Assembly: GCA_049591635.1 (NCBI GenBank)
Contig: JBAWFF010000408.1
Coordinates: forward strand, 1-51,386
Origin: Acetobacteraceae bacterium
GTDB lineage: Bacteria; Pseudomonadota; Alphaproteobacteria; Acetobacterales; Acetobacteraceae
Direction of reading: 5' to 3'
DNA length: 51,386 nt
This document shows positions 16,362 through 22,544 of this stretch, in pieces. Position numbers and translations under genes: made by a program. The notes beneath the pieces were generated by a model that worked only from the letters and a program-made list of their open reading frames with translations, was not told where the DNA came from and ran no database searches. Positions within the stretch are counted from its first letter, which is position 1; each line of letters begins with the position of its first letter.

Positions 16362-16811
16362 CTACCGTGGCCAATCCAGCCTCGGCTCGGTCCGCCCGTC
16401 ACGGGGCGGGCGCGCCGGTCCAGGGCGAAGCGGGCGCCCGGCACCCTGCGGCGGGCTCGGGGCGGTCAGGGGATGGTCGGGATCATCCAGTTGGTGAGCC
16501 GCCGGAGGGATTGGCGGTCGGGAGAATGGCGGCGGCCGACGGGACGGCGCCGGCGCAGGCTCCGCGGGCGGAGCGGCGTACAGATCGTCGAACTCGATCG
16601 CGTGTCCCGCGTCGGGGAGGCGTAGCGCGAGGGTGCGGATCTCCGCCTGGATATCGTCCAGCCGCGCCTCCAGCCCGTCCAGCCGCGACTTCACCCCGAT
16701 CACACTGAACGGCACGAGCAGGAAGGCGAGCAGCCATAGCAGCACCAGTACGAGCACGATGGTCGGCGCCCACCAGGGCATCCAGTCGGGGAGGGCGAAG
16801 GGGAGGTTCAT
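16362..16811 (-). CDS. Hypothetical single-pass membrane protein with a coiled-coil segment and proline-rich tail
   Basis: An N-terminal Trp-rich TM helix (WMPWWAPTIVLVLVLLWLLAFLLVPF) is followed by LDGLEARLDDIQAEIRTLALRL and then a Pro-rich tail. No clear RBS. Confidence 0.5.
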   Translation of the reverse strand: MNLPFALPDWMPWWAPTIVLVLVLLWLLAFLLVPFSVIGVKSRLDGLEARLDDIQAEIRTLALRLPDAGHAIEFDDLYAAPPAEPAPAPSRRPPPFSRPPIPPAAHQLDDPDHPLTAPSPPQGAGRPLRPGPARPPRDGRTEPRLDWPR

Positions 16812-16920
16812 GGCGCGCTATCCTAGGTCGGCGCCTATTATGCTCCAACCGTGCTTCCGCGCGGGTGGATTTAGCGGATGCGGCGTGGCAAAGCCTGCCG
16901 GCTCGCAGGAAGGATTCGTC

Positions 16921-18030
16921 ATGCTGTTGCTGATCCCCGGCCCGGTCGCCACGCGGCCGGAGGTGCGCGAGGCCATGAACGTGGACCTCGCGCCGTGGGA
17001 CAACTCGTTCCGGGAGTTCTACGCGCGGCTTCGCCGGCGGGTGCTGGCCCTGGCGGGCGGGCGAGAGGACGAGCACGCGGCCTTGCCGCTTCCAGGGTGC
17101 GGGCATTTCGTCACCGAGGCGGCGATCCGCACCTTCCTGCCCCAAGGAGCCAAGCTGCTGGTCCCGATGAGCGGCGCCTACGCCGAGCGCATGGTGCGGC
17201 TGGCCCGCGACGCGGGGCGGCAAGTCGTGGAGCTGCCCGTCGTGCCCGATAGGCAGGTCGATCCGGCCGCCGTCGGCGCCGCGCTTTCCGCCGACCACGC
17301 GATCGGCCATGTCGGCGCCGTCTACAGCGAAACCGGCACCGGCGTCTGCCACGACATCTCCGCCATCGGCGCGGTGGTGCGCGGGCTGGGGCGGCGCATG
17401 ATCGTGGACGCCGTCTCGGCGTTCGGCGCCCTGCCGTTCGACATCTCGACGCAACCCGAGGTGGACGCGGTCGTGTTCACCGCCAACAAGTGCCTCGAAA
17501 GCGTGCCCGGCATCAGCTTCGCGGTCGCGCGCGCCGATCGGCTCGCGGCATCGGCCGGCAACGCCGGGAGCTGGTCGCTCGACCTCGCCGACCTCTACGC
17601 CCAAGGCGTGCGGAGCCCCGGCTCCGCGCGCTTCACGCCGCCGGCGCAGGTGATGGCGGCGCTCGATCGGGCGATTGATTTCCTAGAAGCGGAGGGGCAG
17701 CCGGCGCGGCTCGCCCGCTACACCGCGAACATGCGGACCTTGTACGACGGGGTGCGCCGGCTGGGGCTGGCGCCGTGCCTCGCGCCGGACGCGCAGGGCC
17801 CGATCATCGTCAACGTCCACGCGCCCGCCGATCCCGCCTGGGACCTTCAGGCGTTCGTGGACGCGCTGAAGCGGCGCGGGTTTCTTATCAGCAATTTCTA
17901 CAACACGCCCGAACCGAGTTTCCGGGTCGGCTGCATCGGCGCGGTGACGCCGGCCGACATGGCGGGCGCGGTCGCCGCCATGGGAGAAGCGCTCAACGAG
18001 CTGCGCATAAGCCGGCGCGAGGCGGCCTGA
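16921..18030 (+). CDS. phnW: Class V aminotransferase, 2-aminoethylphosphonate:pyruvate aminotransferase (PhnW)-like
   Basis: ATG 16921 has AGGAAGGA upstream. The protein is collinear with PhnW signatures: [40 protein letters not shown], the PLP-lysine motif [16 protein letters not shown] and FRVGCIGAV. Confidence 0.75.
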
Positions 18031-18031
18031 G

Positions 18032-19702
18032 ATGCCGGGCGATCTGGAGATCGCGCGCGCCGCCCGGCTGCACCCGATCGCGGAGATCGCCGAGAAGCTC
18101 GGCGTTCCGGCCGATGCGATCGAGCCCTACGGGCGGTACAAGGCGAAGATCGGCTTCGACTTCATCCGTAGTGTCGAGGAGCGGCCCGAGGGCGCGCTGA
18201 TCCTCGTCACGGGGATCAGCCCAACCCCGGCCGGCGAAGGCAAGACGACCACGACGGTGGGCCTCGGCGATGCGCTGAACCGGCTGGGCAAGCGTGCGGC
18301 GATCTGCCTGCGCGAGCCGAGCGTGGGGCCGAGCTTCGGGCAGAAGGGCGGCGCCGCCGGCGGCGGGCACGCGCAGGTGGTGCCGATGGAGGAGATCAAC
18401 CTCCATTTCACCGGCGACTTCCACGCCATCACGGCGGCCAACAACCTGCTCGCCGCGATGGTCGACAACCACGTCTACTGGGGCAACCCGCTCGGCATCG
18501 ACGTGCGTCGGATCAGCGCGCGCCGAGCGCTCGACATCAACGACCGGGCGCTGCGCGCGATCGTCAATGGGCTGGGTGGCGTGGCGAACGGGGCGCCGCG
18601 CGAGGACGGGTTCGATATCACCGTCGCCTCCGAGGTGATGGCGGTGTTCTGCCTGTCGCGCGACCTCGCCGACCTCCAGGAGCGGCTGGGGCGCATCATC
18701 GTCGCCGAGACGCGCGAGCGGCGGCCGATCACCGCAAGCGACCTGAAGGCGGACGGCGCGATGGCGGTGCTGCTGCGCGACGCGCTGCAACCGAACCTCG
18801 TGCAGACGCTGGAGGGATCACCGGCGCTGGTGCATGGCGGCCCGTTCGCCAACATCGCGCATGGCTGCAACTCGGTCATGGCGACGCGGCTCGCGCTGCG
18901 CCTCGCCGACGTGGTGGTGACGGAGGCGGGGTTCGGCGCCGATCTGGGAGCCGAGAAATTCCTCGACATCAAGTGCCGCCTGGCGGGGCTGCGACCGGCC
19001 GGCAGCGTCGTCGTCGCCACCATCCGCGCGCTGAAGATGCAGGGCGGGGTGGCGCGTGCCGATCTCGGCCGCCCGGATCCGACGGCGGTCGCGCGTGGCG
19101 TGGCGAACCTCGCGCGGCACGTCGAGAACATGGGAAAGTTCGGCCTGCCGGTCGTGATCGCGATCAACCGCTTCACCGCCGATACCGACGACGAGTTGGA
19201 CGTGGTGCGCGACGCGATGGCGGCGCTGGGCGTGGAGGTCGCTTCCTGCACACACTGGGCGGACGGCGCCGCCGGGGCCGAGGGCCTGGCGCGCGCCGTG
19301 CTGGCGATGATCGACGCCGGGCAGGCGCGCTACGCGCCGCTTTATCCCGACACCATGGGCCTCGCCGACAAGCTGCGAACGATCGCACGCGCGATCTACC
19401 GCGCCGCCGACATCGCGCTGCCGGCCCACGTGGTGCGCGCGCTGGAGCGGTTCGAGGCGGCGGGGTTCGGAGGCGTGCCGGTATGCATCGCCAAGACCCA
19501 GTACAGCTTCAGCGCCGATCCGACCGTGCTTGGCGCGCCCACGGGTCACATCCTGCCGGTCCGCGACGTGCGCCTGTCGGCCGGCGCCGGCTTCGTGGTG
19601 GCGATCTGCGGCGACCTCTCGACGATGCCGGGATTGCCCCGAGTGCCGGCGGCCGAGTCGATACGGCTGGACGGGCAGGGGCGGATCGAGGGGTTGTCTT
19701 AA
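18032..19702 (+). CDS. fhs: Formate-tetrahydrofolate ligase
   Basis: Begins 1 nt after the phnW-like stop. It has the P-loop-like [15 protein letters not shown] plus the family signatures [18 protein letters not shown] and [13 protein letters not shown]. Length is 556 aa. Confidence 0.95.
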
Positions 19703-19713
19703 GGGCCGCCATC

Positions 19714-20265
19714 ATGCCGTTGGCACCTGAGTACACGGCGATCCTTGAGGTGCTCGCTGAAGCATGTAGCCTTTACAGGCAGAAGACGGGCCACGACGCT
19801 GTTCTCGTGGGCGGCGCGGCCACCGCGATTTATACGGATGGGGCGTTCCCGTCCGGCGATTTTGACTTCGTAACAGCCGACGATGCCGCGTTCCGCAAGG
19901 CCCTGCGGGAGACCGGGTTTCGCCCCGAGCGCCGCGCCGGCCATCTGCTGATCGGCTTTTACCATCCCAATCATCCCCAATTTGGGGTGCAGCAGGTATC
20001 GGGAAGCCTGTTTGAGGGGCGTACCGATAAACATCGGATGGTGCACGTCGTCATCCGATCGCCTGACGCCGGTCTTACCCTCCCGCCCATCGAGGACTTG
20101 ATTGCTGACCGGCTTGCTCAGCATGCGGTGGCATCGCCCAGCGACACGTCTCGACTGCTCCAGGCACAGGCTTTGTTTCGTCTCGCACATCGCCTGGACA
20201 AAGACTATCTTCAGCGTCGGGTGCACGAGGAGGGAGGCGATTTGAGTCTCCTCATGCCGCCGTAA
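19714..20265 (+). CDS. Hypothetical protein with a minimal nucleotidyltransferase-fold signature (AbiEii/MenT/DUF1814-like motif), carried on a small insertion
   Basis: ATG 19714 lies 9 nt after the fhs stop. LVGGAATAIYTDGAFPSGDFDFV resembles the GG-x(n)-S-x-D-x-D motif of Pol-beta-superfamily NTases. Local G+C is visibly lower than the flanks. Only the last 183 codons of ORF-track entry 18973..20265 are considered real. Confidence 0.55.
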   Translation: MPLAPEYTAILEVLAEACSLYRQKTGHDAVLVGGAATAIYTDGAFPSGDFDFVTADDAAFRKALRETGFRPERRAGHLLIGFYHPNHPQFGVQQVSGSLFEGRTDKHRMVHVVIRSPDAGLTLPPIEDLIADRLAQHAVASPSDTSRLLQAQALFRLAHRLDKDYLQRRVHEEGGDLSLLMPP

Positions 20266-20276
20266 GACCGAGGTTC

Positions 20277-20483
20277 ATGCAGATGAAGAAAATCACCCTT
20301 AGAGGATTGCAGGCGCGAGTCCGGACGCGAAAGACACGCCTTGGCATTTCCGAGGACACGGCGGCGGTCGACGCTATGCGAAACAAGGGTGGCGCCCGTA
20401 CAGACGCAAAGCGCGAGCTGCTTCATCGGGCCGGCGAGCGGGCGCGAGTGGCCGGCAGGGTGCCTACGAAGTCCTATTACTGA
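20277..20483 (+). CDS. Small, very basic hypothetical protein (68 aa), possible partner of the NTase-fold ORF
   Basis: GAGG lies just upstream of tandem ATGs, and the gene starts 11 nt after the preceding stop. It is Lys/Arg-rich (KKITLRGLQARVRTRKTRLG...). No family was recognised. Confidence 0.35.
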   Translation: MQMKKITLRGLQARVRTRKTRLGISEDTAAVDAMRNKGGARTDAKRELLHRAGERARVAGRVPTKSYY

Positions 20484-20514
20484 ACAACTGGCTGAACTCC
20501 GCTCGGAACCGGCC

Positions 20515-20679
20515 TCTCCAGCGCCGATCCACCGTACTCGGCGTCCCCGCCGGGCACATCCCGTCCATCCGTGATGTCCGATCTGCGGCGACCTCTCGAC
20601 AATGCCGGGATTGCCCCGCGTTCGGGCGGCCGAGTCGATGCGGCTGGATGTGCAGGGGCGGATCGAGGGGTTGTCGTAG
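20515..20679 (+). pseudogene. fhs: Decayed duplicate of the fhs 3' end (remnant of the pre-insertion terminus)
   Basis: 20579-20679 aligns base for base with 19602-19702, with 9 mismatches in 101 nt by eye, and ends in TAG where fhs ends in TAA. 20520-20578 aligns more loosely with 19511-19570. A stretch of about 31 nt (fhs 19571-19601) is missing, which breaks the frame. Confidence 0.85.
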
Positions 20680-20700
20680 GGCGGCCCCGCGCGGCTGAGG

Positions 20701-21327
20701 TCAACGCGGCGGCTTGGCGGCATAGTTCGACAGAAACATCGCCACGGTGGCATCGACCACGCGCTCGATCTCGCCAGGGGTCGGCGTCGCCAGCAGCCCT
20801 AGTTTCTGACGCAGCACCAATCGCGTCTGACAGAGGGCGAAGAATTGTTCGGCGGCGAATTCCGGGTCGGGCACGCGCAGCTCCCCACGCCGGGTCCGTT
20901 CGGCCAGCCACTCGGCCAGGCTGTCGATCGCCCGCGCCGGCCCGGCATCGAAGAAGGCTCGGGCCAATTCGGGGAACTTGGCCGCCTCGGAGATCACCAC
21001 CCGATAGATCGTCTGTCCGGCCGGAGAGATCATGATCTCCAACATCCGCTGTCCGACGCTGTGGAGTACCGCCTCCGCCGGCGCCGCGTCCTGGTGGGCC
21101 AGGTCGAAGACGTGGACCAGCTTGCGGCGGCACTCCTCGCCCACATAGGCCGCGAACAGCGCCGCCTTGCTGGGGAAGTAATTGTACAGCGTGCCCTTGG
21201 AGACACCGGCGCGGGCCGCGATGCTCGCCATGCTGGCGCCCTCATACCCGTCGGCGGCAAACACCGCCCCAGCGCCAGCCATGATCCGCGCTCGCTTTTC
21301 CTCGGACAGCGCCTCCGCTTGCGACAT
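20701..21327 (-). CDS. TetR/AcrR family transcriptional regulator
   Basis: N-terminal HTH region RARIMAGAGAVFAADGYEGASMASIAARAGVSKGTLYNYFPSKAALF. It is divergent from the efflux genes. Confidence 0.9.
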   Translation of the reverse strand: MSQAEALSEEKRARIMAGAGAVFAADGYEGASMASIAARAGVSKGTLYNYFPSKAALFAAYVGEECRRKLVHVFDLAHQDAAPAEAVLHSVGQRMLEIMISPAGQTIYRVVISEAAKFPELARAFFDAGPARAIDSLAEWLAERTRRGELRVPDPEFAAEQFFALCQTRLVLRQKLGLLATPTPGEIERVVDATVAMFLSNYAAKPPR

Positions 21328-21422: not shown

Positions 21423-22544
21423 ATGGATCACGCCGTGGACATGGACGTGCGGACCCAGCCGGATCAGGCGGAATTTGAGGATATCGGGACACTGGACAGC
21501 CCAGCCAGGCTGTCGAAGGAGAGGTGGTATCGTCGCCATCCGTGGCTCGCCGGCTTCGGTGTGCTCGTGGCGCTCGTCATCGTGGCGGGCGCCGTGCTCT
21601 GGTGGCTGAACGCACGCAACTACGTCAGCACCACCGACGCGCAAATCGCCGGCTACGTAACCCAGATGTCGCCGCAAGTTCCCGGTCGCGTCACCGCCCT
21701 GCTGTTCACCGACAACGAGCACGTCGCCGCCGGCCAGAAGCTGTTGGAGATCGATCCTCGCGATTACCAGGCGAAGCTCGATCTGGCGCTCGCCCAGCAG
21801 GCCGGCGCGGAGGCGCAAGTGACGCAGACGCGGGCACAGCTTCTGGTGCGCCAGGCCGACCTCGACCAGGCCAGGGCCGCGGTGACGGTGGCGCAGTCCG
21901 ACCTTACCCAAGCGAGTAATGACCATGCGCGCTTCGAGCATATCAACCCACGGGCGGTGACGCAGCAGCAGCGCGACCAGATCGACGCGGCGTTCCGCTC
22001 CGCCACCGCGAAGCTCACGTCGGCGAAGCAGGGGGTCGAAGGCGCCGGGGCGCAGATCGAGGTGGCGAAGGCACAAGCGGTATCCGCCGAGGCTGGGCTG
22101 AAGCAGGCCGCGGCGACGGTCGAAACCGCCCGATTGCAGCTGTCCTATACCACCATCACCGCCCCGGTTGCCGGGCGGGTGACGCATCGCACGGTCAATG
22201 TGGGCGACGTCGTCCAGGCGGGACAACCGCTGTTCGCGCTGGTGCGCGACGAATTGTGGGTCGACGCGGCCTTCAAGGAGACGGAATTGGCGGGGATGCG
22301 CCCGGGCCAGCCGGTAACGATCACGGTGGACGCGGTTCCCGGCGTGACGTTCCACGGCAAGGTGGACAGTTTCCAGTCCGGCACCGGGTCGCAGTTCAGC
22401 GCCTTGCCGGCGGAGAACGCGACCGGCAACTGGGTGAAGGTGGTGCAGCGCGTGCCGGTCAAAATCGTGTTCGGCGGCACCGAGTATCGGAAGCATTTCC
22501 TGGCGCCGGGCATGTCGGCTGAACCGAGCGTGAAGCTGCGCTGA
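21423..22544 (+). CDS. emrA: HlyD-family efflux periplasmic adaptor (EmrA type)
   Basis: Single N-terminal TM helix (WLAGFGVLVALVIVAGAVLWW). Other features are the lipoyl-like motif VSTTDAQIAGYVTQMSPQVPGRV...V..GQ.L..ID, long coiled-coil repeats (QAKLDLALAQQAGAEAQV...) and the C-terminal GNWVKVVQRVPV. Confidence 0.9.
   Translation: MDHAVDMDVRTQPDQAEFEDIGTLDSPARLSKERWYRRHPWLAGFGVLVALVIVAGAVLWWLNARNYVSTTDAQIAGYVTQMSPQVPGRVTALLFTDNEHVAAGQKLLEIDPRDYQAKLDLALAQQAGAEAQVTQTRAQLLVRQADLDQARAAVTVAQSDLTQASNDHARFEHINPRAVTQQQRDQIDAAFRSATAKLTSAKQGVEGAGAQIEVAKAQAVSAEAGLKQAAATVETARLQLSYTTITAPVAGRVTHRTVNVGDVVQAGQPLFALVRDELWVDAAFKETELAGMRPGQPVTITVDAVPGVTFHGKVDSFQSGTGSQFSALPAENATGNWVKVVQRVPVKIVFGGTEYRKHFLAPGMSAEPSVKLR

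Follow-up and report, generated by a model that had tools for sequence, protein, structure and literature searches.

Displaced ('orphan') 3' ends have been described for the effector loci of Rhs, contact-dependent inhibition (CDI) and type VI secretion systems (T6SS), where they are ascribed to homology-facilitated illegitimate recombination (PMC3240628; PMC5361080). In the toxin-antitoxin pair MenAT1 (Rv0078A/Rv0078B) of Mycobacterium tuberculosis, menA1, the gene for the antitoxin, a helical protein of 68 amino acids (aa), is located upstream of menT1 (PMC10435456). Here, we describe a locus that bears on both. It is found in a contig of 51,386 nucleotides (nt) from an Acetobacteraceae bacterium (GenBank assembly GCA_049591635.1, contig JBAWFF010000408.1, forward strand; the whole stretch is termed the window). 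Two small open reading frames (ORFs), ORF1 and ORF2, are placed between the intact 3' end of fhs, the gene for formate-tetrahydrofolate ligase, and a second, decaying copy of that end, behind which a convergent tetR gene follows. We regard the locus as a known kind of event in a well-preserved state, and not as a new type of mobile element.

The resemblance to the Rhs, CDI and T6SS orphan ends is that a conserved upstream gene would anchor the incoming DNA, that a new 3' end would be installed together with cargo, and that the old 3' end would be shifted downstream as a fragment, with no need for a dedicated recombinase. However, the anchor fhs is the gene of a housekeeping enzyme and not of a polymorphic toxin, and the two fhs termini are allelic versions of one sequence rather than different toxin domains. 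Recipient sequence was also duplicated here and not deleted, so a circular intermediate fits better than the classic linear case. Islands and prophages that target the 3' ends of genes are similar in other respects: direct repeats of the gene end flank foreign DNA of lower G+C content, the target gene is intact and the site is empty in a relative. The insert in fhs differs from these by being only 0.8 kb and having no integrase. Its repeats are long and diverged, and a near-identical stretch within them has homology to either side. Furthermore, this cargo is present at the same site in two other lineages, without a second repeat.

The duplicated fhs terminus and its insert

The last ~195 nt of fhs (19507-19704) were found to be present again at 20516-20681. 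By blastn, 19602-19704 and 20579-20681 align over 103 nt without gaps and with 9 mismatches (91% identity, E 1.6e-37), in agreement with the preliminary description of this DNA, which had counted 9 mismatches by eye in the distal 101 nt. Further upstream, 19507-19566 matches 20516-20574 with 77% identity (E 1.4e-6) and a 1-nt deletion in the distal copy after 20530. The ~34 nt of fhs between these blocks (19568-19601) are reduced to 3 nt, a net deletion of ~31 nt at 20575-20579, and the distal copy is therefore out of frame. That the proximal part is more diverged, out of frame and lacks about 31 nt had likewise been noted. The similarity of the distal segment to the fhs terminus is in any case highly significant. 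From the stop codon of the distal copy, TAG at 20677-20679, to the tetR stop (20701-20703) the distance is 21 nt, close to an earlier estimate of 20 bp. The C-terminus and stop codon of fhs vary between the sequences analyzed: the attached copy ends in EGLS-TAA (19697-19702) and the displaced copy in EGLS-TAG, the fhs genes of L190, L001 and L086 (loci of relatives, see below) end in EGLF-TAG, and that of L192 also ends in S.

Between the two copies are 813 bp (19703-20515) with two ORFs, of which ORF1 starts 11 nt past the fhs stop. The G+C content of this segment is 0.617, compared to 0.70-0.74 across fhs (200-nt windows) and 0.678 for the whole window. At third codon positions the G+C content (GC3) is 0.68 for ORF1 and 0.70 for ORF2, while fhs has a value of 0.92 and neighbouring genes have 0.81-0.92. 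A duplicated and decayed fhs terminus flanking an insert of lower G+C content, as originally proposed, is thus confirmed by the two blastn matches and the base composition. The observation that the insert holds two small ORFs and neither integrase nor transposase also stands, as ORF1 and ORF2 are the only genes between the repeats and match no recombinase family in Pfam, NCBIfam, PADLOC or PHROGs. A promoter and terminator scan of 19400-20800 gave no promoter-like site and nothing else of use.

Relatives were ranked by fhs identity and their contigs then fetched. The fhs genes of L190 and L189 are closest to that of the window (96.6% at the amino acid level, 93% at the DNA level), followed by L191 (95.5%), L192 (90.6%), L001 (88%), L193 (87%), L086 (87%, for the C-terminal 188 aa only) and L194 (86%). 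In L190, fhs is followed by a spacer and a convergent tetR without ORF1-ORF2, i.e., the site is empty, which bears out the earlier proposal of an insertion into the fhs/tetR junction. The module is likewise absent from L189, L191, L192, L193 and L194, with other genes downstream of fhs in the last three. The fhs stop of L190 is followed by a palindromic repeat element of 127-131 nt and then by homology to window positions 20679-20895 (89%). When the palindromic element is left out, the L190 sequence reads TAG-GGCGACCGTCGCGCGACAGGAG-TCA, and it aligns with TAG-GGCGGCCCCGCGCGGCTGAGG-TCA after the distal copy in the window. The L190 contig ends in tetR, the 64 C-terminal residues of which are 89% identical to the window. 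Since the L190 spacer is collinear with the flank of the distal copy, the distal copy and its flank represent the ancestral fhs/tetR junction. It follows that the 813-bp ORF1-ORF2 segment is an insertion.

Two more distant relatives, L001 and L086, carry ORF1-ORF2 (86-88% aa identity) right after fhs, 8-11 nt past its stop, and the sequence from this stop to the ORF1 start is homologous to that of the window. Both loci lack a second fhs segment as well as flanking repeats, and in L001, where the flanks are covered, there is no recombinase-length ORF between fhs and tetR. Thus, the closest relatives are without the ORFs, and the relatives with the ORFs are without the second fhs segment. In both loci ORF2 is followed by a convergent gene of the enolase superfamily (mandelate racemase / muconate lactonizing enzyme; L001:6635-7720, L086:1368-2135). 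The order in L001 is ORF2, the enolase-superfamily gene and then tetR-hlyD, with a TetR that is 71% identical to that of the window over the whole protein. A scan of the genome collection with TetR gave 80 loci, and fhs was found beside tetR in L001 only. The enolase-superfamily gene was absent from the window and from 79/79 other tetR loci, which rules it out as a general neighbour of tetR. Metagenomes were also scanned with an invariant 18-mer of the fhs end; this gave 102 loci, eight of them with fhs (all ≤77% aa identity) and none with the module.

The palindromic element is flanked by GGCG and was found in the fhs/tetR spacer of three relatives (L190:1908-2038, L189:2484-2600 and L191:2158-2275). 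Its arms are TCATCGCGAGCCGAAGGCGAAGCGATCCAGG and CCTGGATCGCGTCGCTACGCTCGCGATGA, and there is no copy of the L190 element in the 51-kb window. The second arm is broken by an insertion in L191 (2275-2931) and L189 (2600-2662), which carries a transposase gene of the IS110 family (DEDD; Pfam E 8e-15). In all, this ~25-nt spacer has received three different insertions in close relatives, which marks the region between fhs and tetR as a hot spot for change.

Table 1. Features of the fhs-tetR region, numbered by window position.
Feature	Position	Strand	Remarks
Class-V aminotransferase gene, upstream of fhs	16633-18030		
fhs (formate-tetrahydrofolate ligase), intact, 556 aa	18032-19702	+	Pfam FTHFS E 4.9e-254, 556/556 positions; NCBIfam PRK13505
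Proximal repeat copy, the functional fhs terminus	19507-19704	+	blastn; zones A, B and C
Zone A	19507-19567	+	Subdivision of proximal copy
Zone B	19602-19641	+	Subdivision of proximal copy
Zone C, terminal 61 nt of fhs	19642-19702	+	Subdivision of proximal copy; candidate recombination breakpoint at ~19642 from collapse of similarity to L190
ORF1, 183 aa, MenT/AbiEii-like nucleotidyltransferase-fold protein, putative toxin	19714-20265	+	
ORF2, small partner protein, basic and helical, of 68 aa or more probably 66 aa (ATG at 20283), putative antitoxin	20277-20483	+	
Right junction segment, origin uncertain	20484-20515	+	First ~10 nt homologous to L001 and L086
Distal repeat copy, decaying piece of the fhs 3' end in a displaced position (pseudogene fragment)	20516-20681	+	
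Ancestral fhs/tetR intergenic spacer, 21 nt	20680-20700	.	Aligns with L190 2039-2063
tetR, TetR/AefR-like regulator, convergent with fhs	20701-21327	-	Pfam TetR_N and TetR_C_7
HlyD-type efflux gene, divergent from tetR	21423-22544		

A single nt separates the aminotransferase gene from the start codon of fhs. This gene pair is kept in all relatives with a contig reaching upstream of fhs (all but L086), and ORF1-ORF2 is thus appended to a conserved two-gene operon.

Origin of the arrangement

We favour homology-anchored recombination with DNA of a relative that already had fhs-ORF1-ORF2, by which the fhs tail was duplicated, and consider this fairly likely. In the ancestor shared with the closest relatives, fhs and tetR would have been convergent with their stops ~21-25 nt apart. 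The window lineage would then have taken up ~1 kb from a related Acetobacteraceae genome in which the module was already located 8-11 nt past the fhs stop. The incoming piece would have run from ~195 nt before the fhs end through ORF1 and ORF2 to a few tens of nt beyond, and may have entered by the host recombination system with the fhs homology as anchor. It could have done so as a circular fragment by a single (Campbell-type) crossover, or with one homologous end while the other end was joined illegitimately at the CTCCA/CTTCA microhomology. An illegitimate join combined with one-sided homology is known from the accounts cited above, as are displaced 3' ends (PMC3240628; PMC5361080). By both routes the fhs tail would become duplicated; one copy would keep fhs intact, with the module placed where co-transcription with fhs is possible, and the other would remain on the old fhs/tetR junction and decay.

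We infer the direction of transfer, the recombination route and which bases of either copy came from the donor. The left junction is identical in three lineages without a site-specific enzyme, which argues that the module travelled with at least the fhs end. At the other join, the CTCCA of the window (20516-20520) corresponds to CTTCA in fhs and to CTCCA beyond ORF2 in L086 and L001, a short microhomology. The sequence immediately before it (20493-20515) has a weak resemblance to the 3' end of the L086 enolase-family gene (shuffle p ~0.04, compared to 0.48 against fhs), and this would be in keeping with a donor resembling L001 and L086.

The distribution of the module on the fhs tree is patchy, as the window, L001 and L086 have it and the four closest relatives do not. 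Synonymous divergence (dS, compared over 68-188 codons) also groups the genes differently. For fhs, L001 groups with L086 (dS 0.41, compared to 0.56-0.61 from either to the window), whereas the window groups with L086 for both ORF1 (0.36 for window-L086 vs. 0.77 for L001-L086) and ORF2 (0.24 vs. 0.32). Compared to L190, the window fhs has 69 mismatches in the 1460 nt from 18182 to 19641, only 6 of them in the last 242 nt, but 12 in the terminal 61 nt (Fisher p 5e-5). In terms of the zones in Table 1, the proximal copy differs from L190 at 1/61 positions in zone A, 0/40 in zone B and 12/61 in zone C. The two window copies differ from each other at 14/60, 1/40 and 8/61 positions, respectively (A vs. 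B, p 0.004), and their longest identical runs, of 22 and 17 nt, are both in zone B. Zone B, with its single mismatch, would then be the crossover or gene-conversion tract. By the Campbell route, the attached copy would consist of native A, tract B and donor C, and the distal copy of donor A, B and native C; the one-sided route would lead to this map too, with a distal copy that is native throughout.

Of the 19 codons that differ between the copies, 10 differ synonymously, while 30% would be expected (p 0.036). This excess suggests that the copies diverged in part at a time when each was still within a functional fhs gene, in different lineages. The distal copy carries bases specific for the window/L190 clade (19512 G, 19519 T and all of zone B). 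As to the preliminary suggestion that the insertion supplied fhs with a replacement terminus, the breakpoint at ~19642 points in that direction but does not prove it.

Several observations weigh against this account. We found no donor of near-identical sequence, the divergence of L001 and L086 being 12-16%, the trace of a donor downstream gene at 20493-20515 is weak, and the number of codons behind the dS values is small. A linear double crossover alone cannot duplicate recipient sequence, which makes it necessary to assume either a circular intermediate or an event between sister chromosomes. Zone C of the distal copy, which is expected to be native and L190-like, differs from L190 at 11/61 positions. 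The L190 tail differs from L192 at 13/61 positions, more than the ~10% of the gene body, whereas the attached tail of the window does not deviate as much (6/61). The L190 tail is thus atypical, and the breakpoint at 19642 may reflect an event in the L190 lineage. Beyond ~19642, no sampled lineage is clearly closest to the window fhs tail. Both copies also share 19654 C, found in no relative, and 19698 C, found in L192 only, for which gene conversion or duplication in situ is needed; 19645 T of the distal copy is common to L190 only. The per-site signals against seven relatives are mixed, and a firm assignment of each base to donor or recipient was therefore rejected. The mosaic could result from gene conversion between the repeats.

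Alternatively, an integrase-mediated island or prophage, with an attP mimicking the fhs 3' end and zone B as core, may have integrated site-specifically and later shed the integrase and the bulk of its cargo, so that ORF1-ORF2 alone remained between attL and attR. The topology is that of Campbell integration, the near-identical stretch of 22 + 17 nt (19602-19641) could be the core, and a site-specific enzyme would account for L001 and L086 having the identical left junction. In other genomes, the same module adjoins an integrase (L195) or a serine recombinase (L197), or is part of a prophage-like region (L081). However, neither a recombinase nor a remnant of one is present in the 813 bp between the copies, which are too short to accommodate one. 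An attR-like copy is missing from L001 and L086, L001 has no recombinase-length ORF between fhs and tetR, and no element with this attachment site was found among the loci fetched. Furthermore, the homology between the copies reaches ~95 nt upstream of the putative core, into zone A, and attP sites that restore a gene 3' end need no such long upstream homology. We therefore find an integrase unlikely to have been responsible. The earlier choice between a heavily reduced island and an unknown mechanism is not upheld either, given the lack of a recombinase and the same module without att-like remnant in L001 and L086. The footprint would be explained most simply, and by known machinery, through homology-anchored recombination with DNA of a relative.

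The order fhs-ORF1-ORF2-(enolase-family gene)-tetR could instead be ancestral, with losses in L190, L192 and others and a local rearrangement in the window lineage, where a duplication/deletion or a template switch would have swapped the enolase-family gene for the genome's own fhs tail. This would agree with the flanking synteny retained in L001 (aminotransferase-fhs ... tetR-hlyD), with a module divergence (12-16% at the nucleotide level) similar to that of fhs in the same genomes, with the clade-specific bases of the distal copy and the two derived bases it shares with the attached copy, and with the weak trace of the enolase-family gene at 20493-20515. Such vertical inheritance nevertheless appears quite improbable to us. 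It requires that the module and the enolase-family gene were cleanly lost in the L190/L189/L191 lineage, leaving the same spacer as in the window, and that additional losses occurred in L192-L194. It is less parsimonious, as repeated clean losses are combined with a local duplication, and it leaves the synonymous excess, the tree conflict and the unameliorated GC3 unexplained. A chimeric metagenome contig that joins two strain variants of the fhs end could be considered since the relatives are nearly all metagenome-assembled. However, both copies are spanned by Logan assemblies of two other runs, L198 and L199, which match the window at 100% identity for 3296 and 2219 bp, respectively, so the structure is not an assembly artefact. 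The distal copy also bears 23 substitutions as well as indels, and its surroundings are collinear with L190 and L001; we give an artefact next to no credence.

It would be more far-reaching, and in our judgement is very improbable, that ORF1-ORF2 is a recombinase-free, self-propagating nucleotidyltransferase module which has the fhs 3' end as recurrent landing site, carries a mimic of the terminus as homology arm and is maintained by addiction. If true, it would be a minimal mobile unit that spreads among related genomes solely via host homologous recombination and the promoter of a housekeeping operon.

The ORF1-ORF2 gene pair

The module was found in several other genomic contexts. In Acetobacter aceti (L195, 6001-7988) the ORF1-ORF2 homologues adjoin a tyrosine integrase at the end of a prophage, and in Novosphingobium flavum (L197, 4172-6772) the module directly follows a large serine recombinase. 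In Gluconacetobacter (L081, 2915-6823) it is located in a prophage-like region together with KilA-N, a phage lysozyme and a BrnT/BrnA pair, and in Falsiroseomonas (L084) between the genes for RNase PH and a polysaccharide epimerase. Because these contexts vary, ORF1-ORF2 is mobile cargo. No flanking repeats were found at L081, L084, L001 or L086, and the duplicated fhs terminus is thus specific to the window.

An ORF2 homologue (64-68 aa, 45-88% identity) directly follows the ORF1 homologue in 7/7 loci examined. The ratios of nonsynonymous to synonymous divergence (dN/dS) among the window, L001 and L086 are 0.09-0.19 for ORF1 and 0.13-0.26 for ORF2, and these low values argue that both are real genes under purifying selection. 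Neither had a match in Pfam, NCBIfam or PADLOC, ORF1 giving only noise at a Pfam E ≤1, and matches in PHROGs were weak and to families of unknown function. When 30 members of the ORF1 family were compared with Pfam, weak matches to DUF7092 and DUF6036 were obtained and nothing else. A search of the PDB with the ORF1 sequence gave no match, and ORF1 did not match the DUF1814/AbiEii profile at the sequence level. ORF1 has at least 209 homologues, mostly from Acetobacteraceae with some from sphingomonads, and some sources label these 'nucleotidyltransferase family' or 'AbiEii'.

An AlphaFold2 model of ORF1 based on 30 homologues had a predicted local distance difference test score (pLDDT) of 91.3 and a predicted template modelling score (pTM) of 0.87. 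Its best Foldseek matches in the PDB are proteins of the nucleotidyltransferase fold, with 5uvd at the top (E 9e-6). MenT1 of M. tuberculosis was matched with E 9e-5 to 7e-4 and a TM-score of 0.52-0.56 (8an4 and 8an5; for 8an4 alone, E 9e-5 and TM 0.56), and further matches were MenT3/TglT (E 3e-4) and ANT(2'')-Ia. Judged by this model, the ORF1 fold is closest to toxins of the MenT1/AbiEii type. Among the 30 homologues G33, G34, D49 and D51 are invariant and S47 is conserved in ≥90%, which gives the G-G...S-x-D-x-D pattern expected for the nucleotidyltransferase fold. S47 and D49 may be equivalent to T39 and D41 of MenT1, as read from the pattern rather than from superposition. The C-terminal motifs III and IV were not identified in ORF1. 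The search for ORF2 homologues gave two matches only and a profile search of the PDB with ORF2 gave nothing, while its AlphaFold2 model, of low confidence (pLDDT 66), has two helices.

ORF1 thus resembles MenT1 in size (183 aa), in modelled fold and in the GG...S-x-D-x-D motif of its N-terminal part, and like MenT1 it is paired with a protein of ~66-68 aa. However, the small gene is located downstream of the nucleotidyltransferase gene, so the gene order is the reverse of that in MenAT1, and ORF1 does not belong to the MenT/AbiEii family (DUF1814) at the sequence level, its identity to MenT1 being 15-18%. We claim no similarity between ORF2 and MenA1. On the basis of the modelled fold and the gene pairing, ORF1-ORF2 is probably a toxin-antitoxin-like pair, with the respective functions of toxin and antitoxin inferred on the same grounds.

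It is only partly understood how small toxin-antitoxin or defence-like modules move without recombinases of their own. Although it does not alter current concepts, the locus flags an unannotated family of MenT1-like nucleotidyltransferases, partnered with a protein of ~66 aa in every locus examined. The site can also be compared in several states, since the occupied site and the gene end displaced from it are accompanied by a relative of 93% identity in which the site is near-empty and by two lineages with the arrangement of the donor type. The locus thereby provides a readable natural example of cargo hitch-hiking on the homology of a housekeeping gene.

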